A stretch of 62,807 bases of DNA, the filler included, from Sanchytrium tribonematis (lineage: Eukaryota): assembly GCA_018985235.1 (NCBI GenBank). It is 14 parts of 14 records of this genome, joined end to end, with 100 filler letters (N's around TTAATTAATTAA, not from the genome) between each part and the next. Parts side by side here need not be neighbours in the genome. Positions count along the whole stretch, not along the records: positions 1 to 18,534 come from JADGIG010000111.1; positions 18,635 to 20,695 come from JADGIG010001133.1; positions 20,796 to 22,852 come from JADGIG010001134.1; positions 22,953 to 25,008 come from JADGIG010001135.1; positions 25,109 to 27,158 come from JADGIG010001136.1; positions 27,259 to 29,308 come from JADGIG010001137.1; positions 29,409 to 47,890 come from JADGIG010000112.1; positions 47,991 to 50,038 come from JADGIG010001138.1; 6 more parts are not named here. The stretch is one strand, 5' to 3'. Position numbers and translations under genes: made by a program. How positions within the stretch are numbered: position 1 is the first letter of the stretch; each line of letters starts with the position of its first letter. Below are positions 8,661 through 48,301 of the stretch, piece by piece. Under the pieces are notes generated by a model. The model was not told where the DNA came from. It worked only from the letters and a program-made list of their open reading frames with translations, and did not search any database.

Positions 8661-9906
8661 TTATTGAACATGCGCCATCATAATTGTCAATAATACAATA
8701 ATAGATCCAAATTTCTCAGAATTTGAGGTTGTTTCTAAGTAAGTGAGAATGACGTGTTGCAGACATTTCTTGTGTTTTTGAGACAAACAAAGTGACGGAT
8801 GGTGTTGTGCTAGTATCCATTGGCACATAAGCAGTTAGACTATCATTTGAATACACTTTTGTAGAGATGAACACAGATGGGCTAGTCGAATTCAATGCTT
8901 CAATCTCAGTAGTATTTGTGGCGTATTTAAATTTGTAATACTCAGCAACTGAATCTGGATCTGACAAATTATACAAGTGGTCCTGCTTGCACATGGTCAA
9001 AAGTGTCAAATTGGTGTATCCTAGCATGGGATTTTCTGACAAATCACAATTTGATAAATATTGCGTATTTTGAATTACAATCCCAGTAATCAAATTTGAA
9101 TTTAATACAACTTCTAATGGTTTACCTGTGATGGTATACTCTCCACTAATCAAGTTATCCCACGCTTTGATGACTGAAATACGGAATGTTGAATTTGAAA
9201 ACGCGCTCAATTTGTTTGAATAAATCTCTAAACTGGTCAAATATGGTGTCAAATTGGGTACAATACCACACAATTGATTGTTTCCTAATGCCAATGTCTC
9301 TAAACTTGATGGAAATGGTGGAATTTGACCAGAAAACAGATTATTTTTAAAATTGCCTTCTACTAAGAACGTTGGAAAGACAAGTTCGCCAGATAACAGG
9401 TTATTCATCATATACAATCCTCTTAATTTAGATGGCATAGATGGAAGTGTCCCATTGATTTGGTTATATGAGATATCCACTGCAATTAAAGACTTTCCAA
9501 AATTTGGAAGATTCCCCGTGAATCGATTTCGACTCACTTGCAACATACTAAATGAGATAGATAGATAAGGAAGTGGACCACTCAGCATATTATTTTGAGC
9601 AAATAATGTTTGAAATTTAGATGGCATTTGTGGTAAATTTCCAGTCACAAAATTATCAGAAATATCCAACGTATTCAACATATCCAATAAAAGCAATGCA
9701 GGACCATTTAATGAACCAGTCAAGTTCATGTTAAACCAGTAAATAGCAGTGACACGTAATGTCGGTGAACAAGAAACAAGCGCATTTGAACAACAATCTG
9801 TTTGAATTTGCGTGTAAATCATTGGCTGCGCTATTTCCATTCCCAAATCACTAGCAAGTGTAATCACATTCGGACAGTCTCTGCTAATCATTGAAAAGAA
9901 AGTCAA
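8661..9906 (-). CDS. LRR surface protein with GPI-like tail (intron 8735..8753; start codon uncertain)
   Basis: DC..CC..C N-cap, LxLxxNxLxG repeats and an S/T stalk. Splicing gives ATQTTSNSEKFGSIIVLLTIMMAHVQ*. No in-frame ATG precedes the hydrophobic signal segment. Confidence 0.7.
8735..8753 (-). other. 19-nt GT-AG intron
   Basis: GTCATTCTCACTTACTTAG; removal joins the ORF to a hydrophobic C-terminal exon. Confidence 0.7.
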
Positions 9907-10223
9907 TAAAAGAAGCAGCGAGTTTGAAAAGGTGGCTCAAATTACCCATTCTTTGTAATTTTTAAATTACAATGTATTCACATAATATTCGTGACTATGT
10001 CATGTCGTGTCATGTCACGGGGGTCACGATAGTCCATTTAACCCTAGTTCATTTGCAAACACTTGCAATCGAATTGCAAGCAAACTGCGTGCAGATATTC
10101 CTGCGACGCCCCTTGATTGGTGTCGCCAAGCAGAATTACAAGCAGATTGCATCGACCATATTCTGTGATTCGCCATCTCATTTATTGTAACATTTAAAAA
10201 GAAACAAATGTATTTACCCTAGT

Positions 10224-11168
10224 ATGTTGTTTACTACAGTTTTACTAACATTGGTTTCAGCTCAAAAACCTCGTAAATGTGTTCGAGACACAAATAGAAA
10301 CCCATCACAAGGTGGAGAACATGGTCATCCATCTCCACGACAACCAGTGGCCCCGCATCACTCTCAAGAACCTGAGCCAACTGCAGAACCAGAACCAACT
10401 GCAGAACCTGAGCCATCTCATGCGCCATCTCATAGTAAACCACCAGCTGCATCTCCATCACCATCTGACAACTCTACAGGTGCACCAGTGTACTCTGCAG
10501 ATTCCATTTGTTCCGATAAATCATTATTATATTGTGATGATTTCTCAGCCGATATTCAAAGAACTACTGACAAAAAAGTGGTAATTGAAGATGGAAAGAT
10601 GATTATTGCCAAGAACAATACTTGGAAAGGATTCGTATATGGTGAATTCGAACCAGCACCTGTCATTTACGCAAGAGCCATGGTTAAAACCGATATGCTT
10701 CCAACTTCACCAGATTGGGTCCATTTCTCATTAATGGAATTTACAGATGAAAATGAAGAATATTTAGTGCGTCCAATTGGTGGACAAGTGATTCCTGGCA
10801 AGGGAAATGAGCCATTAATGGGAATTGGAAATAACAAGGGAACCACTGGAGATTGGTTAAATTGGCATGAAAATACGAAATTCCCAATGAACAAATATGT
10901 TTGTTATGAATTTGTGATGGATAGTACTGCTACCGGGGATGAGGCTGTGATTCAAGTGTGGTTGGATGGAAAAGAAATTCCTGAATTAAAATTGACGCAA
11001 TCCAATTGGGGAGAGCAAAATAGTGAAAAATCAGGATTATTTACATTGCCTAAATTGAGTAGAGCCAAATTCGGTTACCAATTGTATCAGCATTCGCCTG
11101 TGACTGCTAGAGTCGAATATGATGACGTGGCAGTTGGAACCAAAAGAATTGGATGTCCAAAGAAATAA
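10224..11168 (+). CDS. Secreted protein with a Pro/Ser linker and a Cip1-like / ConA-lectin-fold domain
   Basis: Signal peptide, EPEPTA repeats, and LYCDDF ... YVCYEF ... VWLDG ... YDDVAVGTKRIGC. Confidence 0.65.
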   Translation: MLFTTVLLTLVSAQKPRKCVRDTNRNPSQGGEHGHPSPRQPVAPHHSQEPEPTAEPEPTAEPEPSHAPSHSKPPAASPSPSDNSTGAPVYSADSICSDKSLLYCDDFSADIQRTTDKKVVIEDGKMIIAKNNTWKGFVYGEFEPAPVIYARAMVKTDMLPTSPDWVHFSLMEFTDENEEYLVRPIGGQVIPGKGNEPLMGIGNNKGTTGDWLNWHENTKFPMNKYVCYEFVMDSTATGDEAVIQVWLDGKEIPELKLTQSNWGEQNSEKSGLFTLPKLSRAKFGYQLYQHSPVTARVEYDDVAVGTKRIGCPKK

Positions 11169-11178
11169 ATGCAATTCA

Positions 11179-12723
11179 TTATTTCATGGACATGATTGTG
11201 ATTTCGCCTTCTTTACCGCCTCCAAGTGTCGTAGCTTCAACGTGATTTAATTTCATTTTCACAATTGGATTTTTCATTGTTTTTGTAGCAACAACTAAAA
11301 TAATGCAAATAATGACAAGTGCAATGAATAAAAAGACAATATTCATAATAGAGACTGGACTAGAGGTATTGGCATCTGAGGAGGGACTATCTGTGGATAG
11401 TGGAGTATCTAAAGAAGATTCTTGGAAAATAGGGATTGTTTCAATTTCACTCATTTGTGAGAAATCAAAGGATGATTCTAAAGATTCAAGGACTGCAGAT
11501 GACTCAACATCTGTCAGTACTTCAAAATACGCTACTGATGATGGAATGACATCAAATTCCACAGAATTTGAATTTTCAAAAGTTTGCAACTCAGAAGAAT
11601 CCAAGAGACTCACTGGTTCTAATTTGATGGTGCTGGTCAATTGAACATCGTTTTCTTGAGAATAGAATGTGAAAGTTGATCCAAAAGTGCTCGTTTTGCT
11701 GAAGGCCGCAGATAAAGAGCTAAATTTAGACATAAGAGCCGTTGTTGATTTTGGAGCAAGAAAATAAAGATAGTTTTTGGTGCACTTTGACAAACTTGAT
11801 AACGAAGCAGATCCAAGCATTGGATTGTTGGAAATATCACATGTTGCCAAAGATGAAGTATTTTGAATTGAAATGCCTGTTAACAAATTGTTAAATAAAA
11901 TCACATTTTGAGGATTTCCAGTGATTGTGATTTCTCCGCTCAATAGATTTCCTTGTGCCCTTAAGTCTCGTATATTCATGATCGGATTTTCAAATTTAGA
12001 AAATAAATTCGAATTAAGTTCCAAAGAGTACAGAGATGGAGGCAAAGCAGGAATGACGCCCTCTAGCATATTTTGCCCAATTGAAAGTAATTCTAATGAA
12101 CTTGGGAAAGGTGGAATCAATCCAGTTAGTAAATTGGCGTAATAAAAACCAGCAACCAATTTTGAGGGAAATTGACCAATTGTTCCAATAAGCATGTTTG
12201 ATTGAATGTACAGTCTATCTATTAGATACGGTAAGGCCGGTATTCCGCCAGAGAGTAGATTGTACCCAATGTCCAATGAAGTCAACGAAGGGGGGAAATT
12301 TGTCGGAATATTCCCCGTGAGGTGATTTGAACCCAAATACAGTCCGGTCATTACAAAAGGAATCAATGCGATAGAACCATTTAAAGCGTTGTGATACGCA
12401 GAAAATACGTTTAATCCAATTGAGATAGTTGGCATACTACCCACAATGAAATTATCTGACAAATGTACAAATTTCAAATCTATCAATCTGTTGATGGCGG
12501 TCTCATTTATGGATCCATTCAAATTTAAAGCTGGCCAAGTTATAGTGCCAACATGTTGCTTTGAATTATCACAAGTGACTCCAACAGCACTACAACAATC
12601 CGTTTGAAGTTGCAAATATGTTTGTGGTTGCACTTTGTCCATTCCCAATCCTTTTGCAAGATTAATCACATCCATACACTGAGTACTCACACTTTTAAAC
12701 AATGACAGCAAGAGCAGTAACAT
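11179..12723 (-). CDS. LRR receptor-like type I membrane protein
   Basis: Signal peptide, Cys N-cap, LRRs, S/T stalk, TM helix and a short cytoplasmic tail. Confidence 0.88.
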   Translation of the reverse strand: MLLLLLSLFKSVSTQCMDVINLAKGLGMDKVQPQTYLQLQTDCCSAVGVTCDNSKQHVGTITWPALNLNGSINETAINRLIDLKFVHLSDNFIVGSMPTISIGLNVFSAYHNALNGSIALIPFVMTGLYLGSNHLTGNIPTNFPPSLTSLDIGYNLLSGGIPALPYLIDRLYIQSNMLIGTIGQFPSKLVAGFYYANLLTGLIPPFPSSLELLSIGQNMLEGVIPALPPSLYSLELNSNLFSKFENPIMNIRDLRAQGNLLSGEITITGNPQNVILFNNLLTGISIQNTSSLATCDISNNPMLGSASLSSLSKCTKNYLYFLAPKSTTALMSKFSSLSAAFSKTSTFGSTFTFYSQENDVQLTSTIKLEPVSLLDSSELQTFENSNSVEFDVIPSSVAYFEVLTDVESSAVLESLESSFDFSQMSEIETIPIFQESSLDTPLSTDSPSSDANTSSPVSIMNIVFLFIALVIICIILVVATKTMKNPIVKMKLNHVEATTLGGGKEGEITIMSMK

Positions 12724-12794
12724 AAAAAAGTGGCTTCAAAATTACCCAACTCAATATTTCTAATAAAATTGAAAGAGACGTGACTCAAATTTGT

Positions 12795-14348
12795 TTATTT
12801 CATGGACATGATTGTGATTTCACCTTCTTTACCGCCTCCAAGTGTCGTTGCTTGCACGTGATTCAATTTCATCTTCACAATTGGATTTTTCATTGTTTTC
12901 GCAGCAACAACTAAAATGATGCAAATAATGACAAGTGCGATGAATAAAAAGACAATATTCATAATAGAGACTGGACTAGAGGTATTGGCATCTGGTGTGG
13001 GTGCTTTTGTAGTCAATGGAGCATCTGAAGAAGATTCTTGGAAAATTGGAATTGTTTCAATTTCACTCATTTGTGAGAAATCAAAGGATGATTCTGACGA
13101 TTCAAGGATTGTGTTCAGTTCTGAATATACAGTAGAAAGTGAATCTGATTCAAATATAGTTGTGAATTCAATAATATCAGAAATTGTCATTTCTGCATTT
13201 TCATAACTTTCAAACTGCTGCATTTTCATCGAGCTTTGAAGCAATTCTGAATCACTTGAAACAGATGTGACCATGATCAATGCGCTGTGAACTGATTCCG
13301 TCGATTGGAGAGCTACAGAATCAAATTTTGTTGAGGTTTTCGACGAACTCTGATTTAATATCGATGGTTCTGTGGTCGTTAAAGGCAAAGTGTACAAATT
13401 GTTTTGCACACACATTTTCAAAACCTTTAGTGATGGGTATCCAAGCATCGGATTGTTGGAAATATCGCATTGGGTCAACATTGATGTATCCTCAATTACA
13501 AACCCTGTCAATAAATTGTCATTTATGATAACAGTGTTGGGTTTACCACTTATATGAATGACTCCACTTATCTTGTTATTGTCAGCCACTAGTGTTGTTA
13601 AGGAAAAGGTGGTGTTTTCAAAACCGGTAAATAGATTTTGATTAATTAGAAATGAGTTGAGTGTTGGAGGCAATGTAGGAATCACACCCTCTAATTGATT
13701 AGCGGATAGACACAATATACTCACGCTATTTGGTATTGCTGGAATGGATCCAGAGAACAAATTGCTGTAATAAAATCCATCAATCAATTTCTGAGGAAAT
13801 AATTCAATTATACCAGAAAGGAAGTTGTTTTGTACACCTAGATATTGCATAAGATTCGGCATTGGTGGAACTGGACCTATAAATTTATTACTTCCTATAA
13901 AAAAGTAAAATAATGAATTTGGCAAATTTGTCGGAATGTACCCCGAGAGGCTATTTGTGTCCACATTGAGCGTGGTCATTGTTGATGGGAGAGACGGAAG
14001 CGTGCCATTTAGCTTGTTTTTTTCTGCAATCAGACTTAAAAGATTACTTGGCAGCTGTGGAATATTTCCTTCAATAAAATTGGTTGACAAAACAATACTT
14101 GTTAAATCTGTCAATTGATTGATAGCTGTCCCATTCAAATTACCATTCAATCTTAGACTATTCCAATCAATTGCTAGTATCTTCGAACCAGAACATGACA
14201 CAAGAGCGAAATTGAAACAACAATTCGATTGAAGTTGCAAATATGTTTGTGGTTGCACTTTATCCATTCCCAATCCCTTTGCGAGATTAATCACATCCAT
14301 ACACTGAGTATTCACACTTTTAAACAATGACAGCAAGAGCAGCAACAT
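12795..14348 (-). CDS. LRR receptor-like type I membrane protein, tandem paralogue
   Basis: Same architecture as 11179..12723, with nearly identical termini. Confidence 0.88.
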   Translation of the reverse strand: MLLLLLSLFKSVNTQCMDVINLAKGLGMDKVQPQTYLQLQSNCCFNFALVSCSGSKILAIDWNSLRLNGNLNGTAINQLTDLTSIVLSTNFIEGNIPQLPSNLLSLIAEKNKLNGTLPSLPSTMTTLNVDTNSLSGYIPTNLPNSLFYFFIGSNKFIGPVPPMPNLMQYLGVQNNFLSGIIELFPQKLIDGFYYSNLFSGSIPAIPNSVSILCLSANQLEGVIPTLPPTLNSFLINQNLFTGFENTTFSLTTLVADNNKISGVIHISGKPNTVIINDNLLTGFVIEDTSMLTQCDISNNPMLGYPSLKVLKMCVQNNLYTLPLTTTEPSILNQSSSKTSTKFDSVALQSTESVHSALIMVTSVSSDSELLQSSMKMQQFESYENAEMTISDIIEFTTIFESDSLSTVYSELNTILESSESSFDFSQMSEIETIPIFQESSSDAPLTTKAPTPDANTSSPVSIMNIVFLFIALVIICIILVVAAKTMKNPIVKMKLNHVQATTLGGGKEGEITIMSMK

Positions 14349-14439
14349 AAAAAAGTGGCTTCAAAATTACCCAACTCAATATTCTATCAAAATTGCAAGA
14401 GACGCGTCAAATATCCAGAATATCTAATTTCTACATCAT

Positions 14440-17400
14440 TTATTGAATATGCATCAAGACAATCATCAATAATCCAACCATCATTTGACTTGCAGAAGAT
14501 GGAGATCCAGTTTCTAAATAAATTATAAATTACGTGCAGCTGGTTCAATGCTTGAAGTACTTGCAGTCTGTCCATTACCATTATTTGCAACAGTAGAAGA
14601 AGCAGGTGTATCTACCAATTGGTTGCTACCAGAAGTCAATTTAATAATTGGGAAATAAGTGCCAGTTTGCGTAAAATCTCCACAAATTTGAAGTCCATTA
14701 AATGTCATTTTAATGTTTAATGGTGCACTCAATTGATTGTTGTTCAATTTTACAGCATCGTACACTGTATATTTACCATCTTGTGGAATGGTTGGAGAAA
14801 CATCCAAACATCCAGTAAATGCTGAAACGGGTTTATCAAATGAAAAACTCTTTCCATCTCCAATCAATTGACCTACTGTTTGTCCATTGCTTTTAATAAC
14901 TGCATAACTGCTGCTTGTTAATCGCTTGCTCAATCTGAATTTATTTGAAGGAGATTGTTGTGAAAATGAACCAGAACTGACTAATCCGATATCTACACCG
15001 ACAGAAGAGTCTTGTGAGCTTGGTAATTGCACATCACATCCATTGGTTTGACCAGGATCTGCTCTACAACTCTTTTGAGGAATTACAGTCGCATCAAAGC
15101 AATTTGCAGTAGATCCAGAGTTGGCACAGCTACAAGCAACTTGTTTAATAGCACCTAATGGGACTAAAAAGGATTGTTTGTACGTATTGATCAATTCTTT
15201 ACCAATAATAGCCCCAACAGAGTTTTGGATTGTTTGCTGTAATCTGTCTCTTGAAACTACTTTTAACCATTGATTATCAGATTTTAATTGAGTTGGTTCA
15301 TATTTACCGGGTTTCATTTGTCCTTTCTTCCAAACTCCGCCATACCAACTGTAAAATGATTTCATTTCTCCGTGACACTTTTGACATTCTTCAACTCCTT
15401 TTTTAGAGAAGCCATATCTATTTCTTTCATAACAGCCACTACCATGTGCAGCACATTCTTGTGCATTCTTTGCACGCTGTTTCCATTTACCAGTACATTG
15501 AGATTTAGTAGATTGTTGGTCAATGCAGCCCAATTGACTCCATCCTTGATTTTGAGGACAATATTGGTTGGTACCATTATTCATGTATTGAAATGGCATT
15601 AAACAAACACCATTGGTCTCTTCTGTGCAAGAATTGCCATTCCATTGACATTGAGGCGTAAATTCATAATCAGAACATTCTCCAGTGGATTCACAACTAT
15701 CTTGGTTCTCACAGTTGGTCCATTGATTCCAATAACATTTCAAAGTCGTGTAAATTCCATTTGCATTACATTTATCTTCAGACAATGTATCACACGTAAT
15801 CATCTTTCCTTGCTGTCTAGCGCAAACATCTTCAGAGACACTCAATACGCATTGATTTGAGTTGTATAAATTACCATTTTGTGAGTCACATACTGTAGAA
15901 TTAGCACTAATCAAACATGCAGATTGTTGATTATAATTTGCAGAAGATTGACATTTCTTACAGCCTCTATTACAATATCCGGATGCTTCACATTCTGTTT
16001 TATTGGTGGTTTGTACATTCCAGTTATCACAATATCCATTTTTGCAATCTGCTTCATTATCCAAATAACCAGGGGTAAATTGTTTTTGAACATAATAATT
16101 GAAGCCATCTCGCTGTGCTCTCTTGATAATATTGCTTGTATATTTACTATAATCCATAATATCACCGTAGTATACCATACATAATCCTTTTTCACCAGCA
16201 AATGTATTAAAGTAAAAATATGGCAAACTTGCATCATTTTGTTGGTATCGCGTCTGCATTCTTGTGTCACAAGCAGTTTGATTGTCACTGGTGTATGCAA
16301 ATGTACCATAATATCCCTTGCCACCTAGATTACCAAGACATTGTAATTCTGTTTTAGCATCTGGAAAATCACAAGATGTCCATGTGGAATACGTGTAATT
16401 GTAAACAGTAACAGATCCACCGGATAGTGTACATCCTTCTACATCATCACCAACATAGATTTGACAGCTAGATGGTCTGCTAATTGGATAACACCATCCA
16501 TTATCGCCTCCTTCACATCTGCTGCAAATATTTGGTTGTTTCTTGGCAATGGTATTACATTGTTGTTGAGTCGTATCTTGCCATGGCTGTGCATTACATT
16601 GTTTGTGCGCAAGACATTTCTCTTGATTGGCAGGTTGACATGTCTCCTTGTAATATCCTGATGAATCGGGTTGCCAGGAACATTGTTTATTACCACCAGA
16701 TTGCCATGCCGTGTTACCTACACAGTCATATTCACTTAATTGATCATTAATTGATGTTTTAATCAATTGTAAATCTTTGTCAGTGACATTATTGCTAAAT
16801 GGCAAACTTAAATCGGATTTGATCTGATAAAACAAGTTAGATGGCATATTATCCAAATAACAACTCAATAACAATCCAGTATCTTGACCCCAAGGGACCA
16901 TACACATCTTTTGATCTGTGCAATATCCAGATAAACAATCTGCATTTGTTTTACATTGCGTATTGTAAACTTTGTCTTGACAGGTATTGAAGAAATCAGT
17001 GTATTTTGTATATTCTGATTGAATATTGTTGGATTGAGACTGAGATTGTAATTTTCTCATGGATTCCAAGACGGAGTAAATTAAACCTTGTACCTTGTCT
17101 TTGTCGGAACAAGAAGCCATATTTTGGTCGTTGAATTGTTTAACAGCCATATAACTTACAAATTGGCTTCTTGGAGCACAACATAATGGCAATTGCTGGT
17201 TACAACATGGATCTTTTTGGAATTCAGGGTCGTCATAAGACAATTGACAATAAGCACCTACAGTAATCTGCATTTTATCTTGTTCAGGGATAAAGAGAGA
17301 TTGTGCTTTCTTCATACATGCATTGTAAGCAATGTTAGATTGCAAACCATTGAAAATAGAAGGGATTTGATTAAAATCTTGCATATTCAAATCTTTCTTG

Positions 17401-18410
17401 CTAAATGTATCAATAATATTAGTTGCCATGTTGTAGAATACCAATAAGTCATCATAAGTACATTGAGGTTCTTTGCCAGCAGTCAATTGCACGGGTGCTA
17501 CAATTGGAACTCCCAGTGAATTTGTCAAAAAATGCTGCAAATTAACCCATCTCTTTGACACTCTTGGGCTAGAAGACTGTTGCTGTGGAGGTGGTGCTGT
17601 AAATTGACTGTTCGGTGAATTGAAAATCACTTGGCAAGACGCAAAATCTGGTTCTGGCATTTTTGGTGGCGCATTTGCTCCCATTTTTTGAATCATTTCT
17701 GGAGGATAATTAACTTGTAAAGGCATCAAAATAGCAACACGGTTCTTAATTGTAGGCTCTTGTAGTGGCACACCATTCATAGCCATTAAGAATGTACTAA
17801 ATGGACTGGTGACGGATGCAGTTACATAAACTGTGCTAAAGTCAGGACCATTAGCTTGTGGAGAGTCATAAGTATTTGGGTACCATGTCTTATCACCACA
17901 CTGCAATTTCAACAAGTTCTTGCTGTATAAAACACTTTTTGGAGTGCTACTTGTTTGGCCGTATGCTGAATAAATTTCTTGCTCAGACATCAAATCGATG
18001 GATACTCTGTTCAAGAAATCATCAATAAACAATTCCTGGTCGAAATCAATAATGATTTCTGCTACATCGATGGTCATTCCACCACTATCACCTCCTCCAA
18101 TGCTCAAACCTCTAGAAACTCGAACTTCTACATGTTGAGAGACTGGGGCGTTTGTTGTTGGTCTATTGGAGATAACAGGAGCTGTCTGGTTATACCAATC
18201 ATCTTTATACATGTCTTGAGGACTAGGTTGGAAATAATTTGGACCATTTGAGCTTCCAGTATTTCCAGAATTACCAGAATTACCAGAGTTGGACTCCATC
18301 TTACCAGTTGGCATTGGCATGTCTTGAGTTTGGGTTGGAGTGGCTCCAAGCACCAGGCTACTCAAAAGCATTTGGGATGAACTGGGAGATGCTTGTTTTC
18401 TTTTATACAT
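14440..18410 (-). CDS. Large (~1300 aa) Cys-rich extracellular protein with GPI-like tail (intron 14514..14533)
   Basis: Signal-like MLLSSLVLGA (the true start may be the second Met) and dozens of Cys. Splicing gives AAQTGSPSSASQMMVGLLMIVLMHIQ*. Confidence 0.8.
14514..14533 (-). other. 20-nt GT-AG intron
   Basis: GTAATTTATAATTTATTTAG contains the ORF's stop codon; removal adds a GPI-like signal. Confidence 0.75.
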
Positions 18411-18534: not shown

Positions 18535-18634
18535 NNNNNNNNNNNNNNNNNNNNNNNNNNNNNNNNNNNNNNNNNNNNTTAATTAATTAANNNNNNNNNN
18601 NNNNNNNNNNNNNNNNNNNNNNNNNNNNNNNNNN
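18535..18634. other. Artificial contig linker (N-run, TTAATTAATTAA, N-run)
   Basis: 100-nt six-frame-stop spacer. Identical copies start at 20696, 22853, 25009, 27159, 29309, 47891, 50039, 52183, 54316, 56446, 58570 and 60691. Confidence 0.98.
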
Positions 18635-21340: not shown

Positions 21341-22852
21341 CTAGCCACCAAGATTTTCTTCCATAGAAGGGGACTGAGTGACAGGTTGATCAGCAGATTG
21401 ACTATAATTAGAAGGAGTTTTAGAATAAGGCTGAGCCATCGTAGCCAAGGTTTCATCCTCTGACATCATTGGACTATTGGCAGCAATATCTAGATCAGAA
21501 TGATTATTGTAAAGTGAATCGTCGTCACTATCGATTACATTCACCCTCTTCTTAGAAGATGTAATATTTTCATTGGGTAGTTCCATATCCATGTCCATAG
21601 TACTCGGACTCGGAAAAGAAACAATTTTAGAATAGTGCTGCTTAATATTTTCGACTTTAGCACTTTTTCTGCGGTAAAAAAGTAAATAAGCACTTCTAGA
21701 TTTAATTCGCTCTTCTGCAGTCTTGTCATCTCCAATTACAGTTACACTAGAATCGTCGCAGTTGTACCAAAGATTGTCATGCTTTGTGAAAGCAGTATAA
21801 TGGCCACCACCAAGTCCACCAAAATGATTCTATATTAGATCAAAATACATCAACAGCGTATAATTCGTATTTATAATAGTCCGGACTATCAGGATCAGAG
21901 CCATCTACAGGGGTTTCAACAGGATTACCGACAACCAACGATCGAATATCCAATTCCATAGGAAAATCGATAAAATCCTCGACTTTCCTCGCCCGAGAAT
22001 AAATAGAAGCAGTACTGCTACTCTGAAAACGTTTTAATTGAATGACCAAAATAGGTGGAATGTGATTAAATAAAGAATACTTTAAAGCCGGCTCGAAGTC
22101 CTTACATTTTGGGCATCGATATAAATTCCCGTCTTCTTTCAATTCTTCTGGCTCAAAAAAGTGCATTAAGCAATCTTCTAAAGTTGTAACACCAGGTTTC
22201 AATTTCCTTTTTCTAGCATCAGACGAATCTTGGAACTGCTTAAAATTTGAGTCTATATTTTCTAAAAAGCTCAAGGTTTCCTTATTTAATTTGTCAGATA
22301 TATCAAAATGTTCGCTTAGCGTCACGCAAAATGCATTTTCCTTGTCTTTCTCTAATTCACCTAAATCAAAAGATTCTATTGTAGTAAAGCGAGATATGCA
22401 TTCTAAAATCTTCTCCTTCATGTCATCAGTTCCATCTATGATTAAGGGATATGGTACATTCGAATTTTTGTGAGAAAAGCGTATATTGACAGGGTTTTCG
22501 TATTTCCTGTATGCGATAAAATCTTTTTCAATTACTTCAGAGTCACTTTTTTCATTATATAAGCGATGATTCCAATGGTCCCATACTACAAAATCTACAC
22601 CAAATTTTTCCTTCAATTTTGATTTCAAAAGTCCGACCGTATCTGTCGCTGGAATTTTAATTTCATAGAGTTTGTCGTGAAAAACTAAGATTTCCATACT
22701 GGTAGGTATTGGAACAGACACAAACTGAAAAGGGTCGTATGTAATTGAAATATGATTGCAATTTTGGCACTGGACTGTTCCTTTGAATTGCCCTCCAAAT
22801 AAATCAAGAATTGCTGAATCGAATCTTTGTTTAGACTTTTTCCATACAAGAA
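21341..22852 (-). CDS. Ubiquitin-specific protease (USP4/11/15, Ubp12-like), 5'-truncated; intron 21830..21848
   Basis: [18 protein letters not shown] and LVIQLKRF. Splicing restores the His box [20 protein letters not shown], then AYLLFYRR. Confidence 0.93.
21830..21848 (-). other. 19-nt GT-AG intron
   Basis: GTATTTTGATCTAATATAG; removal restores the conserved USP His-box motif. Confidence 0.92.
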
Positions 22853-27258: not shown

Positions 27259-27571
27259 GTAGAAAATTGACAGAAGATGGAATATATTGTGATTTAATGG
27301 TCCCATTCACATTAACATAATCTAATTGTAATGCGAATATGTGCTCATTAGCAGCATTACCCATACATTCAATATCAATGACTGCTAATCCATCCGAATT
27401 GACAAAATTACAACAATCTGTTGGAATACTTTGAAATAAATATGGATCTGTTTGATGGAGATTTAAACCACGTAGAAAATTAAAAATGATTGGACAATCT
27501 ACGGAAACACCTAATAATCGCGTGACAAAGATGATATAAATGATGAAAATGGATTTGATATTGGGGAACAT
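27259..27571 (-). CDS. N-terminus of an LRR surface protein, 3'-truncated
   Basis: TRLLGVSVDCP..GLNLHQTD..QSIPTDCC, paralogous to the 48478 gene. Confidence 0.75.
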
Positions 27572-27650
27572 GTCTGATGGATTCTGTTTGGCCTAGTTGA
27601 GAACATATGTTGGCGCAAGATTTCATTATGTTTATTGATTCACAAATCAT

Positions 27651-32044: not shown

Positions 32045-33341
32045 TTAGTTTATTTTAGTCTCTTTGTTGTCAGGATTGAAATGAGGCTTTAAGTCCTGCC
32101 ATACTTTGTAATATTCTGGTTGTAATTTTTGGGATATTGACATAGCATATGGTGTAGGTGAAAGAATAACACTTGTCTCAAACATAAAAGCCATTGTATT
32201 TTCAGCAACTCTTTCTGGTTCTAATTTAGCATTTGATGCTTTTTTGAAAGTTTGAGCATCAGGACCATGTGGTGTAAACATTGAATGTAAAGATGCTCCA
32301 CCTGGGTTAAACCCATTTTGCTTCGCTTCATATTGCCCCGTAATGAGACCCATAAATTCAGTCATGCTTGATTAGATTGAATTACCAGTTTCGGTGAAAA
32401 TAAGGTGGGCGGAAAGTGTGGCTTTGAACTGCCCATCTGGGTGGAAAAATAACAAAATCACACATAGCTACGCCTGGAGTGTTGGTTTTACAAGTTAAAA
32501 CGGTAAAGATGGAAGGATCTAAATGGTCATATGATACCGAATTAACAGTATTAAATTTCCTTAGATCATATTTACACGGGGCGTAATTACCTTGCCATCC
32601 CACTACGTCAAATGGAGTAAAGCCAACGCATTTGTATAGGTTGTGTTGGTATTTGTTGAGAATGGTAAAGTTTGGTTTCTCGCTTTTGTCATGTACGTAT
32701 TCCGCACTAGGGTACACAAAATCTTTTGGATCTGCGAGACCATTGGCGCCAATAGGACCTAAGTCAGGAAGCTCAAAATGACCGTTGTATACTTCACATA
32801 TGTAACCTCGGCTTGGACCACTAATTTTAACTTGAAATCTAATTCCTCTTGGTATGATGCAAATTTCCAAGGGTTCTACGATTAATCTTCCAAGCTCCGT
32901 CAAGATATCTAGTGTGCCTTGTTGTGGCACAATAAGATAATCTCCATCAGAATTCTGAAAAGCTTCTTTTTCCATACTTTTTTGACAAGAATAAATGTGG
33001 ATAGCCATTCCGGATTTGTCTGACGCATTTCCTCCAATTGCAACAGTTTTAATACCATCAACAAAGTTACAGTCTTCTATATTGAAAGGATCCCAGCGCA
33101 ATTGATTCGGAGTCGAAATACATTCTTTTGCTACAGGATGAAATTCTCTGACTAGTTCAAAAGGTTGATGAACAACTTGTGGCCTGATTCGATATACCCA
33201 AGTTCTTTGGTTATAGATTCTAGGCACGGTGAAGGCACTTCCTGATATTTGTTCCGCATATAATCCGTATGGACATACTTGTGGGGTATTATGCCAAGGT
33301 ACGGCTCCTTCTAATGCCTCGCTTTTTAGATGATGGATCAT
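32045..33341 (-). CDS. HGD: Homogentisate 1,2-dioxygenase; intron 32367..32385
   Basis: [23 protein letters not shown] and [12 protein letters not shown]. Splicing restores [13 protein letters not shown]. Confidence 0.97.
32367..32385 (-). other. 19-nt GT-AG intron
   Basis: GTAATTCAATCTAATCAAG; TG|C recreates the conserved HRNCM motif with no residue gained or lost. Confidence 0.93.
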
Positions 33342-35513: not shown

Positions 35514-36462
35514 ATGGCAGAAACTAATTACTTTCGCTTAGTATCTTTGGCACTTTTGGCTGCTTTGTACTTTTATGGATTTAGTGGATCAGATTCTGAA
35601 AAATCACGAAGAACACCTACACCTGTTTCTCAACCTCTTCTAAGTTTATGTAGCCGTGACAAGCCAAACGTAATATCCTTTGCTTTTACTGAGGGAGTTA
35701 CTGGTGCTGGTGCTTTAATGGCTCAAACACTCAAAAGTTATACTGGAAATCCAACAGCAATATTTTTTTACATTGACAAAGACTTTTACTTTCAGACTGA
35801 TAATGGTTATTCTGCACAACTGGTAGAAAATGGACACATAGTAGGTTTAAGATGGTACCAAAGTTGGACTGATACTGCAAAGCTTTCAAAATCTGCATTT
35901 CAACAAGCAATTATTGCTTCATCCGAAAAGATTAATAATCAAATTAATCAATACATCACCCCATCAAAAGCAGGAAAGTATTATCCTAAATATATTGCTT
36001 TTGACTATGCTGATTCTTCTAAAAAAAGTTTACTTCAGCAGTACTCTGGATATGCAGGTGAGTTGGGAATGTACACAGTCTTGAGTGATTTCATGCCTGA
36101 GTCAAACAATGAGAATTATGAGGCTGTAAAGTTAAATTATAAAGCTAAATTTGACAAGGACGTTGGAACCTTGGGTACTTTTGCCATTGCAATGCACCCT
36201 GGTAATCCGCAAGCTTCAGTTAGTGGTTCAAACATATTAGATTTGATCAACACAACCATTGCACCAGCTGGAAAGACAATTATTTCAATCTCCAATTGTT
36301 TATCCGCAGCAACTTTATATAGAACTGGTATTTCTTATTTATTTAGACAATGCATTACCAGCAGGAACTAGTTCTGACCCAGGCACTAAAGGATCTGCAA
36401 ATTTCGTGTCGCTATCATTCTTTTTGGCTACAATTTTATTGCTAGGTTATTTGGCATTGTAA
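35514..36462 (+). CDS. NodB/chitin-deacetylase-like protein lacking catalytic motifs, GPI-like tail; intron 36328..36346
   Basis: C-x4-VISFAFTEG resembles LTFDDG, and ENGHIVGLRW and ISISNCL also match. Splicing adds DNALPAGTSS...SFFLATILLLGYLAL. Confidence 0.72.
36328..36346 (+). other. 19-nt GT-AG intron
   Basis: GTATTTCTTATTTATTTAG; G|AC joins the ORF to the GPI-signal exon. Confidence 0.82.
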
Positions 36463-36478: not shown

Positions 36479-37051
36479 TTATTTAAACAACTTTTCAATT
36501 GTAGTTTTGCAGTCGTTAAAAACGATTTCAACATCTCTATCTCCGTTAACAGTATACACATTGCCCTTGTAATAATCGATTACAGGCATTGTCTGATCTT
36601 TGTAAACAACTAGTCTCTTTTTTATTGCTTCAGGATTATCGTCTAAGCGACCGCTATTTTGAGAACGTTTAAGAATTCTCTCGACAAGAACTTTTTCATT
36701 CTCAATATTTAAAAATAACACCCCTAAAATTTCGAATCTCTTGTCACTGCTGGCTTGTAGTTTCTCAATTTGAGCTTCAAAACTTTTGGCTTGTTCGATT
36801 TGCCTTGGGAAGCCGTCGACCAAGATGAGTGGATCAGTCATATGATCAAGAAGAAGCTCAATTGTGATATGGCTCGGAACAATCTGTCCATTTTTGATAT
36901 ACTCGTCGATCAATTCCCTATGCTTTTTGCTACTTCGCAATAAATCGCCAGCACTCAAATGTTGTGCCTTAAAGTGCTTCTTTAACAAATCACTCTGAGT
37001 TCCTTTACCACTTCCTGGTCCACCAAGAATAAATAGAATTTTAATCACCAT
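36479..37051 (-). CDS. UMP-CMP kinase (adenylate kinase family)
   Basis: Motifs FILGGPGSGKGTQ, HLSAGDLLR, LVDGFPR and SGRLDDN. Confidence 0.94.
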   Translation of the reverse strand: MVIKILFILGGPGSGKGTQSDLLKKHFKAQHLSAGDLLRSSKKHRELIDEYIKNGQIVPSHITIELLLDHMTDPLILVDGFPRQIEQAKSFEAQIEKLQASSDKRFEILGVLFLNIENEKVLVERILKRSQNSGRLDDNPEAIKKRLVVYKDQTMPVIDYYKGNVYTVNGDRDVEIVFNDCKTTIEKLFK

Positions 37052-38465: not shown

Positions 38466-38498
38466 TTTAATTTCAAGTTTCAAAAATTTTGATTTATT

Positions 38499-40409: not shown

Positions 40410-42309
40410 ATGGCAAAAGAATATGAAGTCTTAAAATTTCAAGACGTACCTAAAGAAATCAAAAAGCAAAGAGTTAGAAGAAGAATTTTAAAGATATTTC
40501 CATACTTCCAACTCATTTCGATATTGTTAGCAGTAGCAGGCATTGTAAGCTGGCTTGTTTTACCAGCCATAACTAGGCATACTTATGTAAGCGAAAATGC
40601 ATTAATGCCTGGACAGGGAGAAATTGCTTTTAAGAATTTCGATTTATTTGAAAACTACTACAATGACCTGAAATCAAACGTGACGTTAGAACACGCTTTT
40701 TCACTTGTGAGTCAGGAAAAATTAACCGAGTTATACGCTTTACATAACAATTACATGCTTATGAGAAGTAAGTCTCAAAGAGGCGATGGTTCAGAGACAT
40801 TACTATTGTATTCCAGCATTTCCTCTCCATTGGCTTGTGCATTGTTGATGGCATACCATGAGGACTTACGAAATAGAAATTACCTTGCAAAAGATGTTGT
40901 CATTCTGATCACTAGAGACGAACCCAGTGGATCCTTTGAATTTGTTAAGGAGTGGTACCATTCAAATAAGAATCTGATCTGGAATAGACCTGGTGAAATT
41001 CAAGTTGCATTAGGCCTTTTATTAGATAGTAAGGATTTTGACACATTTGATATTTTGTACACAGGCCATCAGCCAAGACTTCCAAATTTAGATATAATTA
41101 ATATTTTGACGAGAATTACTCAAATGTATGGACTTAGAATGTCTGTTCATGGGTCTATGGCAATCGGCGGAAGCTCATATTTCGACTACTTAAGAAGAAT
41201 GGTTTGGATGGTGAGCAGCTTGATGATAGGAGACTTGGACAAACATTCCGCTCATTCTAATTTCGGAACTGTGGGACTGGATGCAGTCACAATTCATTGC
41301 AAGAATTCAAACACTACAAAGTCTTACTATACTGGAGATGGCGGTCAGTCATATAAAACTCACAATCCAAAACATGTTACTTTAGTTCTAGATTACATGA
41401 CTAGAGCGTTTAATAATTTGTTGGAAAAATTTCATCAATCATTTTATTTTTATATATTAGCGTCTCCTACTAAATATGTTAGCATAGCTGATATGTCTAT
41501 ACCCATTGGGATTTTATTAATTGCTTTAATTTTTCAGGCTATTGCGTTGTGGTATTACAGCGATTCTGGCTATGAATTTCAAAAGTATATTCCGAGACAT
41601 ACTTCTGAAAGTAGACCTGTACTTTCAATACTTAAGACAGTGATGGTCCCACTTGCAATAACTACTTTTTTATTTGGAGTTGTCTCAATCATCAAGCAAA
41701 TTCGTGTATTTCCGGATAACATCGTACAGATTTTTAATTTAGATATTTCCAATACATGCTGTGTTGAGTATGCTGATTCATATCATACTGATCTTAAGAA
41801 GCGAAGACATTTTTGATAATCTATTGGAAGATTTTTTCATTATAAAGCATCAACAACGAGATTGGATGGTTTTCAAATGCTTTTTGTGTGTGGGTGCCAC
41901 CTGCTATTTATTTGCTATATCGACCTTGAATTATTTCTTGTCCGCATTCATGACAACAATACTTGTTCCAGTAATTATTTTTATTGGTCCTCCGAAATCT
42001 TCTTATCACAGGACTTTTCTCAACTTGGGTTTACTGGCATTTAGCGCAAGTGGTTTATTTTTAGTTTCACAGACAATATATCAATTCAATTGGTCCTCAA
42101 TTGTAGATATTATTGAGATGTTGGGACTAGACATATCGGCTTTGAAGCTGATAAAACCCATTAACATTCCTCAATTATGGCTTGGTATGTTTAAAAAATG
42201 GTTTAAATTTGGCAATCCGTTTTATCCATCTTTGTTTATCGCGCATCAGGCTGCAATACTTGGCTGCGTCATGATTGTCAACGGATTTGCTTTCAATATG
42301 CAGGAATAA
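40410..42309 (+). CDS. GAA1: GPI transamidase subunit Gaa1; intron 41724..41742
   Basis: Motifs TYVSENALMPG, YLAKDVV, LPNLDIIN and NNLLEKFHQSFYFY; splicing links the C-terminal TM exon. Confidence 0.94.
41724..41742 (+). other. 19-nt GT-AG intron
   Basis: GTACAGATTTTTAATTTAG; removal fuses the two overlapping GAA1 ORFs (DNI|IFPIHAVLSMLIH). Confidence 0.85.
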
Positions 42310-42311
42310 AT

Positions 42312-43226: not shown

Positions 43227-43441
43227 GTGCTTTTACAATAAATGCTTTAATGAATGGCAACTATTGGTAAATTACTCTCGTGAAAAATTTTGATTTCATT
43301 CTAAGATAAATAAATTAAGCAATAAAGATAAGTTACTGCGGCAGCTATAGAAAATATAGTTTCAAATATCTTATTCAAAATACCATAGTGGTTTTAAATC
43401 TGTTGCAAAGGAGGTAAATTTGTGACAGATTTTCTTAAATT

Positions 43442-45752
43442 ATGGATTTTTTTGATCAGAATGAAGAAGCCCCAGAAGCGATTGATTTTCCAATCTCTCC
43501 GGAGGAAATCGAAGACATCTTAAGGCCTGAAAGCCCTCATATATACAGTAATTATTTCAATTTATATCCTGAAGAAATTCCTAGTTTTGAGATATTGACA
43601 GCAGAAATGCCGCTAGTGAAAATAACATTCAGTGAAAAATCCATGGAAAAGCTCGAGACAAAATCAGATTCTGCAAATGAGATTGCAGACAATCTTAAAT
43701 TAATAATTGATAAAAGCTTCAAAGATTCAGATTTCGATCAAAAGGGTACCGAGAATATCGAAGAATCAAATGTGGAATCACTGCTCGATCAGATATCTCC
43801 ACCTGACTCTACAATGAAATTGAAGCCAAAGTTAAATATTGATATTCCGCCTTCACCTATTGAGATGCTTCCAAGTGCAAAGCCTGGCTCAAATCTTCCT
43901 ATTACGGCCAGATTATTAGAAAGAAATAGAAATTCAAGTATAACGTCCATGGCAACAAATATTAGCAACATTTTAAATAGCGAAGATAACTTTGCAATCC
44001 CCTCATTCGAAAAAGGGAATCCAACGATCTCTTGGGAAGAACTGGCGATATTTTCTGCTGAATACAAAGAGATGCTAATGAGATTATGTAGCGAGGAGTC
44101 ATTCTTGGTCCCTGATAAATTTTGGACCAAGATTGTTAATATGGAATTTCCCTTTGCTCAAAGTAAGGATGGCGCGTATGAAATTTGGTGTGCCCAAGAA
44201 TGCTTAAAATCTAGAATTTTAGAAAACTGCACTAAAAATGGAAATGTCTATGCCCTTTTGAATCACGTAGTTGTTAGACTATTAACTTTTTCAAACAAAT
44301 CTCAGCAACCTAGTAGAGACGTTTTAAATTGTCTCGGTTTGTTTAGATTTTTTGCACATGTAATCATGCAAGAGAATTGGGAATGTGCGCGACTTTGCTT
44401 TCTCCCTCCCGAAAACGACGATTCTCCTACAAAAGAGAAGTCTGAACTTCAAAGTTTGTCTGAACTCTTGGTCAAAATTGTGATAAGATCGGACATGGAA
44501 ACTATATTTCACAAGGCACTTTACAATGAAACTTGCCATTTATTGATTGTTTTATTAAGCAGCCAGATGCATCACGAACAAGACACAATAACTGAAATCC
44601 TTATGGGTGAAATTGACCACCGAGTGTACAACAGTTTGCTTTACAATTCATTGCATTTTTCAAATATGACATCCAGTGGAATACTAGGTTATTTTACTTC
44701 CGGTACTTCCATTGTGGACTATTCGAATAGGTTGAGTTGCCAATTGTTTTTGCTTTTGATCCAAAATAATGTTTTTATCCTTCATGAATTAAATCTGGAC
44801 TTTGGTATGCTCTACAACAGTATCAAACACATCCAAGATTATGAATTGTTAATAACTTTACTTTTTCTCGTCATTTCACATTCGAAAGATTTTACAGGGT
44901 ACATTATGTCAAAAGCTGATCCGGAGTCATTTATACTGCCAGTTTTGCAATGCATGTATTCGAATTTGCGGAAAAAATGTCATGCTTCAAAATTTTATGT
45001 CCCCTCCATCCTGTTATTTTTAATGAGCCAAGACAAAGTTTATCTAGGACAACTTCAAAATGCTAAAGTCGGCACTCCAGAATGGTTTTTAGATAAAAGA
45101 ATGGGAAATACAAGCCTGCTCAATATTATATTTACTAGCTGCACTTATCTGCTTGTTTATAATGCTAGTGGTCTCAAAGATTCTTATATCCAAACAAATT
45201 GCCTTTCAATCCTTTATAACATGGCCGTTTTCATAAAGAATCTACACCCTTATGCCGCTCAAAAGTTTGTAAGTATGTTGGAATCATTTTTCAAAAAATT
45301 CATTCGATCCAGTGAAGAGGAAGAAAAAGCTGCGCTAAAAAGTATTATTTTATGTTTAATTCAAATTATTAACGGACTAATTTCTACAAACATTCAACAA
45401 AATCCGCATATTGTTTATGTGTTGATTCAAAAACTGAATTTTGTAGAGGCAATGTCGCAACATGAAGAATTTGAACCTTACTTTCACAATATATCAACAG
45501 TACTTGCTTTTAATATAGGTTGCTCATATGCTTGATGACTTTATAAATAGTGATAATCTCAACGATCCTGAGCAATTATTTTCAATGGTTGAAAATGAAT
45601 TGCGGAAACCTATAAAATTGGAAGATTGTCCTATTCTCCAATTAACTTGTTCAATTGAATACGAATTTTTTCTTCCTCACATATGGGCGGAAATAGTCGA
45701 ATACCCTTTAATATATTGGGGAATTGGCAACCCATATGAGATTTTCGAATAA
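43442..45752 (+). CDS. Dymeclin/Hid1-family protein; intron 45500..45518
   Basis: Motifs YIMSKADPE, DSYIQTNCLSILYNMA, LHPYAAQKFVS and NPHIVYVL. Splicing adds the EFFLPHIW exon. Confidence 0.87.
45500..45518 (+). other. 19-nt GT-AG intron
   Basis: GTACTTGCTTTTAATATAG; removal gives NIST|VAHMLDD in frame. Confidence 0.87.
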
Positions 45753-45771
45753 AATTTTCCCCTTAATTCCC

Positions 45772-46389: not shown

Positions 46390-46415
46390 ATTTATTTAAA
46401 ATGTATTGATTAATT

Positions 46416-47890
46416 TCAATTGAGCAATTCTGAAAAGTAAGTGTCCCCGGCCATTATGTTTTTATATATATTTTGATATAATGACATTGTAAAAACTGGA
46501 AGTATTTTGCTTCGAATAGCCACCACAGTTTGATTCAGCGACATTCCATTATAAGCCGTTTCGCCGTGGACTAGTTCGTACAGTAGAATGCCAAAACTAT
46601 ACATATCATCTAATTCTGAATATCTGTAGCTATTTCCCTTGTCAAATTGACAAATTACGCTATCACTCAAGTATCGTGCATACAATGGTTGCTCTGGATC
46701 ACTTTGAGACAGAAAAGGCTGAATTCTCAAATCCCCAATAATTATGTCAATTGTTTCGCCTGCTACCAGTTTCTTGATAAAAATAGAATGAAGGCCCAGA
46801 TTGCCATGACATCGTTTTTTAGCATGGATGGCTGTCATTCCTACAACTATTTGATTGACTATAGTCTGAATTTCTTTTTGATAATCTAAAATTGGAAGCA
46901 TATTTGTAGAAGGGTTTAAAAACCATTCATGTAGAGTCATTTGATATTTCTCAAAAATCAAAATATTTTTGTTCGGTGCTTGTGAAAAGCCACAAATTTG
47001 ATGTACTCTCTGAACTCCTCTTAAATTGCAATACAACTCCATTTCTTTTAAAAAATAGGACTCGCTTGACGAGTCTATACTTTTAAGTATTACAAATTTG
47101 TAAGGATTGTGGTCGTCGCTTTGGAGTAGCTTCCCACTTTTAATTTCAATACTGCCTCTCGTAGTAATTCTTTCCATCGGCTTGATATCTTGTAAGGAAA
47201 TTTTGTATGCCTCATATCTTTTCAATATATTCGCTGTTGGCACAATAGATACTTTATTTATAGCGTTGCGACCTAGTGATTGCTTCGCCCAAAGAATCAA
47301 AAATATTATAATAGTTACTACAAATGCTGACGCGGTAGCTAATACGACAAATATAGGTGTCGGGAGTCCAAATGACTCTGATGCTTGCGATACTGCTTTA
47401 GTCTGTGTCAAAGAAAAGTGTATAGAAACTGAAACTGTGTTGTTTTCTGAAAGTGTTTGAGTATTAGTGAGGATCAAATTCTCCAATAAATTTGAAGACA
47501 AATCCGACGAGTAAAATTGACCACCCAACCTCGAATTTGAAGTAGAAATGGAGCCAGAGTTCAAAGTTTTAAGAATGGCTGTGGCATGTGCAGTATTATA
47601 ACTTGCCGTATCCTGTAGACTATTTGCATTAGTCAGATAAGAAGTGGCATTATCATCACTACAGAGATGGTAAATATTTAATAAATCCAATTGACTGATA
47701 TAGTGGTAATGATGGACATGAGAAACGTTGTTTAATTGTGTTGCTTGCTGTTCATCAATTAAATGAGAAACAGTAGTTCGGTCTTCGATATAATTTGTTA
47801 AAGTTTTGCTAGTCCAATGGCAGGGTTCGGTAGAATTTTCTTGAACTGTTATGGTGGTACTATTAGAATTGATAAATGTAGCAGAATCTG
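46416..47890 (-). CDS. Receptor-like TM protein with a TKL-type pseudokinase, 5'-truncated
   Basis: S/T ectodomain, TM helix and a kinase fold with CHGNL (for HRD), GDLR (for DFG) and DMYSFGILLYEL. The frame appears open to the contig edge. Confidence 0.8.
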
Positions 47891-47990
47891 NNNNNNNNNN
47901 NNNNNNNNNNNNNNNNNNNNNNNNNNNNNNNNNNTTAATTAATTAANNNNNNNNNNNNNNNNNNNNNNNNNNNNNNNNNNNNNNNNNNNN

Positions 47991-48301
47991 GGATGTCGAT
48001 ATCCCTGTAACAACTCGTAATTCTCATTTATTTAGGTCCAACTCGTTTTATTGTAAATGGTCTCACTTCTGTAATTCAATCCATAACGACAACAAAAGAC
48101 ACCACCAAAAATCTCACAAGTAAGACAGAATCACCCCAAATTACTTCTAATCAATGGTCCATTCAGCCATTTAAAATTGAATGGTCTGTTTTAGTCACCC
48201 TCAAATTCAGTATTAGTATTTTTATAGTGGGAATTGTAGTTAGTAGAACACCATTCAGAAGAAAAAAGAGTTCAAAGAAGCACACAGAATTTCGTGCGTA
48301 G
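47991..48301 (+). CDS. 3' end of an LRR-TM family gene (not in the ORF track); intron 48017..48035
   Basis: After splicing it reads TT-R-PTRF...WSVLVTLKFSISIFIVGIVVSRTPFRRK, homologous to the 27651 tail. Confidence 0.7.
48017..48035 (+). other. 19-nt GT-AG intron
   Basis: GTAATTCTCATTTATTTAG, at the same position and phase as the 27950 intron in its paralogue. Confidence 0.8.

Follow-up and report, generated by a model that had tools for sequence, protein, structure and literature searches.

Nine short GT-AG segments that interrupt coding regions of Sanchytrium tribonematis are very probably spliceosomal introns, and comparison of their sequences makes it highly likely that they are genuine sanchytrid introns of the major-spliceosome (U2) type, which have shrunk to about 19–21 nucleotides (nt). 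The segments lie in what we call the window, a stretch of 62,807 nt from assembly GCA_018985235.1. It comprises 14 contigs, two of about 18.5 kb and twelve of about 2 kb, which are joined by N44-TTAATTAATTAA-N44 linkers at 13 sites (the first at 18535–18634), and gene neighbourhoods spanning these linkers are artificial. A first-pass annotation had reported nine GT-AG segments, eight of 19 nt and one of 20 nt, and all of them were recovered, introns 1–5 below lying on the minus strand and introns 6–9 on the plus strand. The predicted introns and their host genes, with positions relative to the coding sequence (CDS) where given, are:

8735..8753, minus strand: intron 1, 19 nt, phase 1, in a leucine-rich repeat (LRR) gene at about 8661–9891, at 0.94 of the CDS
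14514..14533, minus strand: intron 2, 20 nt, phase 1, in a Cys-rich surface-type gene at 14440–18410 (1316 amino acids, aa), at 0.98 of the CDS
21830..21848, minus strand: intron 3, 19 nt, phase 0, in a ubiquitin-specific protease (USP) gene at 21341–22852, whose 5' part is lost at the contig end
27950..27968, minus strand: intron 4, 19 nt, phase 1, in a decayed, frameshifted LRR gene copy (C-terminal tail)
32367..32385, minus strand: intron 5, 19 nt, phase 2, in homogentisate 1,2-dioxygenase (HGD) at 32045–33341, within the Cys codon following HRN
36328..36346, plus strand: intron 6, 19 nt, phase 1, in a gene at 35514–36462 with a hydrophobic N-terminus
41724..41742, plus strand: intron 7, 19 nt, phase 0, in GAA1 (subunit of the glycosylphosphatidylinositol (GPI) transamidase) at 40410–42309
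45500..45518, plus strand: intron 8, 19 nt, phase 0, in dymeclin at 43442–45752
48017..48035, plus strand: intron 9, 19 nt, phase 1, in an LRR-family paralogue (C-terminal tail) that is truncated on its 5' side by the contig start and has the end of exon 2 at about 48301

Introns 1 and 2 (8735/14514) as well as introns 4 and 9 (27950/48017) are paralogous pairs, so that the nine segments represent seven independent positions. The former pair occupies aligned positions in paralogous tails with lengths of 19 versus 20 nt, and the positions of 27950–27968 and 48017–48035 align likewise. Intron 9 is the weakest of the nine, its backing being the paralogy with 27950–27968 and the motif described below.

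In all nine cases, removal of the segment connects a long reading frame upstream with an open one downstream, with just 8 upstream codons available at 48017 before the contig end; the unspliced forms meet a stop within 1–35 codons (9/9). To assess whether removal restores conserved protein, excisions were scored against homologues. For HGD, a profile of 113 non-sanchytrid homologues, each of at least 420 aa, placed the 19-nt excision first among 27 frame-restoring GT/GC-AG excisions (697.6 versus 611.9 bits; unspliced, 526.2 bits). Exactly one residue separates HRN from M[STA]E[FY]M in 108 of the 113 homologues, this residue being Cys in 93, and excision yields HRN-C-MTEF, with HgmA_C positions 1–58 on exon 1 and 60–153 on exon 2. 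In the USP, excision yields YAVD/NHFGG (slash, junction) and makes the Pfam UCH match contiguous, from 109–203/204 on exon 1 to 205–254 on exon 2; an in-frame GT that would give a 25-nt segment would cost two motif residues. Restoration of exactly these two motifs had been noted in the first-pass annotation. The 19-nt excision in dymeclin also ranked first, of 16 (217.2 versus 213.2 bits; unspliced, 199.2 bits). For GAA1, a hidden Markov model of distant homologues placed it third of 38 and within 0.7 bits, the top three excisions being inseparable. Three surface-type genes gain a hydrophobic C-terminus resembling a GPI signal only in the spliced form, the best C-terminal hydropathy rising from 0.37 to 2.45 upon excision of 8735, from -0.19 to 2.52 at 14514 and from 1.58 to 2.52 at 36328. 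Two intronless neighbours reach 2.01 and 2.18, like the spliced forms of these three genes.

The source organism is, by its sequences, a sanchytrid fungus, i.e. a member of the alga-parasitising Sanchytriomycota. The closest named relative is Amoeboradix gromovi, with identities of 78% in KRR1 and 81% in HGD, as compared to a non-sanchytrid ceiling of 72% and 63%, respectively. In a KRR1 tree of 27 of 121 rows, picked for being named or close, the window sequence groups with A. gromovi and environmental sequences (support 100/100), and quick trees of HGD place it with A. gromovi (SH-aLRT 100). The ties between contigs and clade rest on KRR1, HGD, GAA1 and dymeclin. The GC content of the window (34.3%) compares with 34.6–36.3% published for sanchytrids (PMC8371127).

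Orthologues from other genomes break at the same sites. Public proteins of these relatives are plain open reading frame (ORF) calls and hence read into the presumed intron. All nine close orthologous ORFs, from A. gromovi and ENA records (HGD, four; GAA1, three; dymeclin, two), stop or lose register at the site seen in the window. Three HGD orthologues end in W followed by five residues (YFILI, YLLLM, YFSFI), which corresponds to a G plus six codons, or 19 nt if the stop is the TAG of the acceptor, and is compatible with T at -8 and A at -6 relative to the segment end; the fourth ends at W, as in the window, and its tail is undecodable. All three close GAA1 orthologues diverge between NI and V. 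When 12 lengths were tried, two of their tails fit AG, T at -8 and A at -6 at 19 nt only and one at 21 nt only, and the A. gromovi tail brings 16 of 29 exon-2 residues into register at 19 nt as compared to at most 8 at the 11 other lengths. Dymeclin tails, tried at 13–25 nt, decode to 19 nt in A. gromovi and to 20 nt in the second orthologue. Overall, the decoded tails give 19 nt six times, 20 nt once and 21 nt once, with one undecodable, and AG, T at -8 and A at -6 are compatible in 8/8. Thus, assembly error is excluded for HGD, GAA1 and dymeclin, and all 17 introns measured in the window (nine) or decoded from tails (eight) fall within 19–21 nt, i.e. in the ultrashort range of about 21 nt or less. 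The first-pass annotation had called the segments fixed in length, which does not hold, as orthologous and paralogous sites give 19, 20 and 21 nt. As far as the aligned sequences tell, the comparison shows a constant distance between presumed branch point and AG, while the distance between donor and branch point varies by about 2 nt. The annotation was right that gene callers would truncate such genes: the published A. gromovi proteins HGD (325 aa), GAA1 (462 aa) and dymeclin (663 aa) are cut short at the site and yet labelled 'complete'. Published sanchytrid proteomes were obtained by running TransDecoder on genomic contigs (PMC8371127).

A scan of JGI metagenomes for an HGD intron of 12–42 nt at this site returned one locus, on contig L001, which is not a sanchytrid. 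Its chytrid-like HGD gene (601–1874) contains six introns of 24–32 nt, the most 3' of which is canonical, 24 nt long and at the sanchytrid site, which suggests that the position probably predates the sanchytrids. The five upstream introns are absent from all five sanchytrid ORFs. An assignment of L001 as Rozella-like was dropped since the quick HGD tree, which contains no Rozella HGD, placed it with chytrids (SH-aLRT 93, weak support).

Alignment of the nine segments at their 3' ends reveals invariant T at -8, A at -6 and AG at -2/-1, as well as Y at positions -9/-5 and W at -7/-3 (9/9), and thereby confirms the YTWAYNWAG ending described in the first-pass annotation. The donor is GT followed by A at +3 in 8/9, T at +5 in 7/9 and T at +6 in 7/9, with G at +5 in none, giving an overall consensus of GTAHTT...YTWAYNWAG at a segment GC content of 22.7%. 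T at -8 together with A at -6 occurs in 9/9 segments versus 408 of 4558 background GT..AG segments of 15–30 nt. The motif GTHN7YTWAYNWAG (19 nt) has 10 matches in the window versus 1.68 +/- 1.33 expected (100 shuffles, none reaching 10); as it was built from the nine segments, the independent test is the length peak only, with no match at 16 nt, one at 22 nt and a mean of 1.6 at other lengths over 12–60 nt. A length-blind scan for frame repair, which demanded only GT..T.A...AG, returned 46 candidates, of which seven measure 19 nt, none is shorter and at most two share any other length over 12–120 nt. Six of these seven are among the nine segments. The seventh, 36541–36559, was rejected because it sits in the C-terminus of a complete adenylate kinase.

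Several observations weigh against reading the segments as U2-type introns. The support for splicing consists of sequence comparison, and the branch A is placed by consensus. Orthologue lengths derive from protein tails rather than DNA, and the three HGD values as well as the 21-nt value assume that the stop codon is the TAG of the acceptor. Five of the nine segments, in surface and LRR genes, lie outside the orthologue comparison, and two are in decayed or truncated copies. Two further 19-nt consensus matches were discarded: 890–908 lies inside an uninterrupted ORF and was rejected, and 48670–48688, in a decayed LRR copy, is a probable deletion breakpoint and was set aside. In a motif-free scan for ORF joining, 19 nt did not stand out clearly, with 13 of 846 candidates as compared to up to 15 at other lengths. 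A crude codon-only Viterbi model with a flat length prior recovered 3/9 segments among 17 predictions at low penalty and 1/9 at higher penalty; many of its predictions are fusions of adjacent genes. Furthermore, decayed LRR copies and a kinase-like ORF of the window contain frame breaks that excision of such an intron does not mend. Finally, the sample is 62.8 kb, and longer introns elsewhere in the genome are possible.

These unrepaired breaks would suit an explanation by misassembly or by pseudogene frameshifts, with GT and AG on either side by chance, as would the whole-genome amplification from which the published sanchytrid genomes were derived (PMC8371127). We regard this as very improbable, since orthologues from other genomes break at the same place in 9/9 cases with different intervening sequence, HGD demands removal of precisely 32367..32385, and L001 carries an intron at the same site. 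The explanation is refuted for HGD, GAA1 and dymeclin and remains for 27950 and 48017 only. Introns removed by Ire1 independently of the spliceosome, like that of fungal HAC1, match in size, being 19 nt long in Candida albicans and 20 nt long in filamentous fungi, but HAC1 borders are CTGCAG-like and embedded in strong structure (PMC2606855), whereas the segments here carry GT-AG and a branch motif. Moreover, folded junction regions were unremarkable in 5/5 cases (z -1.03 to +1.05) and none of the host genes is related to bZIP factors, so that an Ire1 mechanism is hardly conceivable. It is also improbable, if less so, that the introns are real and mostly retained through poor splicing, as in microsporidia, with truncated products or targets of nonsense-mediated decay predominating. 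The short introns of Encephalitozoon cuniculi are spliced below 20% on average (PMC6349667), the early stops in all nine unspliced forms would fit, and A. gromovi has UPF1-like entries; however, exon 2 retains conserved coding sequence (HgmA_C, E=9e-38; UCH catalytic box), and functional amounts must therefore be spliced.

Assignment to the U2 type agrees with GT-AG borders and frame restoration in 9/9, with conserved protein at the junctions (homology of HGD, USP and dymeclin; orthologues of GAA1) and with a yUnAy/CURAY-like branch element near the 3' end in 9/9. U12-type introns have an RTATCCTT donor and a TCCTTAAC branch; only 27950 begins with GTATCCTC, its paralogue 48017 differs, and the U12 branch occurs in 0/9, so that the U12 type was rejected. 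The usual fungal donor is GTRAGT with G at +5, a feature found in 0/9 segments. A GTAAGT donor is also given in PMC2483917. By analogy, a G at +5 would not be required of U2-type introns, as the commonest intron of the ciliate Stentor also lacks it. Mechanistically, U2 may pair with the YUWAY element such that the A at -6 is bulged. As in Yarrowia and Stentor, the acceptor would then be the first AG downstream of the branch A, 5 nt on. The donor would be the nearest GT, 13–15 nt upstream of the branch A; the actual GT is indeed the nearest one at least 10 nt upstream of the AG in 9/9. Splicing would release a lariat with a loop of 14–16 nt and a 5-nt tail. The narrow size range probably reflects deletion bias acting against a steric floor in a largely conventional spliceosome, and this intron-poor lineage may have kept mainly one 3'-proximal intron per gene.

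For the spliceosome itself we consulted the relative A. gromovi, searching supplementary file 4 of PMC8371127, in which about half of the proteins are annotated, with 18 terms. The eggNOG annotation lists Prp8, Brr2, SF3B1, both U2AF subunits, BBP, U1-70K, Isy1, Snu13, cactin and UPF1-like entries (PMC8371127). The first-pass annotation had suggested a search for loss of U2AF, SF1 and SF3b; their wholesale loss finds no support in the A. gromovi annotation, with both U2AF subunits, BBP and SF3B1 listed. In the same file, BBP/SF1 is represented by two neighbouring ORFs of one contig, a pattern that an uncalled intron within the gene would produce (PMC8371127). An Rfam search of the window detected no small nuclear RNA and two matches at chance level. 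Yeast Slu7 and Prp18 are dispensable at short distances between branch point and AG. Five KO numbers, which we take to be those of U1-C, Slu7, Prp18, Cwc15 and Syf2, were none of them among the matches listed for A. gromovi, in a half-annotated table that makes absences weak; given the yeast dispensability, the unmatched Slu7 and Prp18 numbers are a lead. They would fit a remodelled spliceosome that picks the donor purely by its distance from the branch point and has lost +5 G recognition and second-step factors, a possibility compatible with the segments being introns. Likewise in its favour, +5 is G in 0/9 donors and T in seven, decodable orthologue tails also exclude G at +5, the donor holds barely any information beyond GTA, and the USP intron passes over an in-frame GT that lies at 25 nt. 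We nevertheless consider such a spliceosome rather unlikely: lengths vary from 19 to 21 nt at orthologous and paralogous sites, choice of the nearest GT above a steric floor accounts for 9/9, core factors are present in A. gromovi, and narrow length ranges have been explained neutrally, by deletion bias against a floor (PMC10245619). Thus, of what the first-pass annotation had inferred, nuclear spliceosomal introns in a fungus are very likely and their independent shrinkage is a reasonable inference, whereas a distinct length-measuring spliceosome is rather unlikely, given the core factors and the lengths of 19–21 nt.

Several known systems come close to these segments. The introns of Stentor coeruleus measure 15–16 nt, with the branch A at position 10/15 or 11/16, i.e. 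at -6 (PMC9505925). They share GU-AG borders, AU-richness, the 5-nt tail and mostly one intron per gene with the sanchytrid candidates, and furthermore a commonest donor, GUAAUU, without G at +5. Most spliceosomal proteins are retained in Stentor (PMC9505925), and many core factors are listed for A. gromovi. The sanchytrid segments differ by their length of 19–21 nt, a loop of 14–16 versus 10–11 nt, a clearer YUWAY element and their fungal host, and also by their 3' bias, as Stentor introns are reported to be 5'-biased (PMC9505925). Yarrowia lipolytica, Trichomonas and Giardia likewise lack a 3' polypyrimidine tract and keep a fixed branch-to-AG distance, and in Yarrowia a 2-nt distance between branch point and AG puts the A at -6; however, Yarrowia introns are long (median 204 nt) with a strong ACTAAC, whereas the sanchytrid candidates are minimal with a degenerate YTWAY (PMC2483917). 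Accordingly, the branch A at -6 claimed by the first-pass annotation is matched in 9/9 segments, but this geometry is not new, being already present in Stentor (PMC9505925) and Yarrowia (PMC2483917).

Chlorarachniophyte nucleomorphs (introns of 18–21 nt) and mikrocytids (16–17 nt) fall into the same narrow size class and are likewise reduced genomes of endosymbionts or parasites (PMC10245619). Nucleomorphs are nonetheless intron-dense, with more than 800 introns in about 300 genes versus about 0.2 per gene here (PMC10245619). The reduced spliceosome of the mikrocytid type has about 17–19 proteins and mikrocytids have no introns in metabolic genes, whereas here the metabolic HGD contains one and A. 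gromovi keeps U1-70K, U2AF and BBP (PMC10245619). Microsporidia, myxobolids and Dicyema resemble sanchytrids as parasites with introns below 30 nt and with donors that have been reduced to GTa. For E. cuniculi introns the figure is about a third of 76 nt (PMC6349667) and the lowest animal median, in myxobolids and Dicyema, is 22 nt (PMC13644364); with 19 nt, the sanchytrid mode is lower still. The presumed branch A's of myxozoans shift away from the AG as length grows, whereas those of sanchytrids stay at -6 (PMC13644364). The HAC1/XBP1 introns (19–26 nt) have only size in common, being cut by Ire1 at non-GT-AG, structured borders in a single gene (PMC2606855).

The window contains nine introns in about 45 genes or gene fragments, i.e. 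about 0.2 per gene, and each intron-bearing gene has one, located in the last third of its CDS. The relative position in the six complete genes is 0.70–0.98 of the CDS (uniform model, five independent positions, P = 0.002), the frame-repair scans favouring 3' introns by design, unlike the motif-only scans; in the three incomplete genes it precedes the stop by 88–162 codons. Within 240 nt around the starts of 30 ORFs no candidate of 19–20 nt was found, while looser matches of 21–30 nt occurred at 13 of the 30. A 20-nt consensus match at 7504–7523 (minus strand), 43 nt upstream of ORF 7003–7461, which is outside these 30, is a possible intron of a 5' untranslated region. Preferential loss of 3' introns has been reported for fungi (PMC8476143), and intron-poor fungi have a 5' bias. 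Given this pattern and the 5' bias of Stentor, the 3' skew in the small sanchytrid sample is unexpected.

Otherwise, the window has gene-dense eukaryotic content. Its genes include KRR1, HGD, NXF1, GAA1, dymeclin, Sec2, USP and many LRR surface-type proteins. The LRR protein family is expanded, partly in tandem (8661–14360, 48478–50038 and 52559–54315), with N-termini resembling signal peptides and transmembrane or GPI-like tails; the copy at 8716–9936 apparently lacks the ATG that starts the signal peptide in neighbouring copies. Decayed LRR paralogues at 27259–29308 and 47991–50038 carry probable 1-nt frameshifts and one deletion, unrepaired by introns. The kinase-like ORF 6332–7015 (minus strand) is without an early ATG and overlaps ORF 7003–7461. 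At their junction, 7003–7015 (minus strand), an acceptor-like ATTATTTAG stands at the end with no GT 19–20 nt upstream, consistent with a frameshift, a pseudogene or a non-canonical donor. A retrotransposon pol fragment at 56546–58569 comprises reverse transcriptase, RNase H and an integrase zinc finger, and a transposase-like ORF at 61742–62720, without Pfam match, has a frame break near 62570.

Taken together, our data appear to extend a known kind of intron system to a new lineage, the atypical features being the missing +5 G in a fungus and the 3' skew. A literature search on sanchytrids and introns, which covered open papers and left the large supplements of PMC8371127 outside, found no report of sanchytrid nuclear introns, and in the available text of the sanchytrid genome paper the word 'intron' occurs only in the reference list (PMC8371127). 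A typical length of 19 nt would be the shortest among those we found reported for a fungus or an animal. One may speculate further that all Sanchytriomycota have the shortest opisthokont introns (19–21 nt), almost only as single last introns near gene 3' ends and against the pattern of reverse-transcriptase-mediated loss, with a spliceosome that lacks +5 G recognition and perhaps Slu7/Prp18, uses the distance from the branch point to choose both splice sites and is possibly coupled to 3'-end processing; as a whole, this combined view is doubtful.

If the proposed introns are genuine, they would represent an independent origin of near-minimal introns, in a fungal phylum and shorter than the introns that we found published for microsporidia, myxozoans and Dicyema. 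Set beside those of Stentor, mikrocytids and nucleomorphs, they would test for a convergent physical floor of the spliceosome, with A at -6, loss of the +5 G and a loop of 10–16 nt. The apparent 3' bias, which runs counter to the reported fungal pattern (PMC8476143), would provide a test of intron-loss models. Finally, missed GPI-like tails of surface proteins and truncated proteomes can distort inferences of gene loss and domain loss for Sanchytriomycota.

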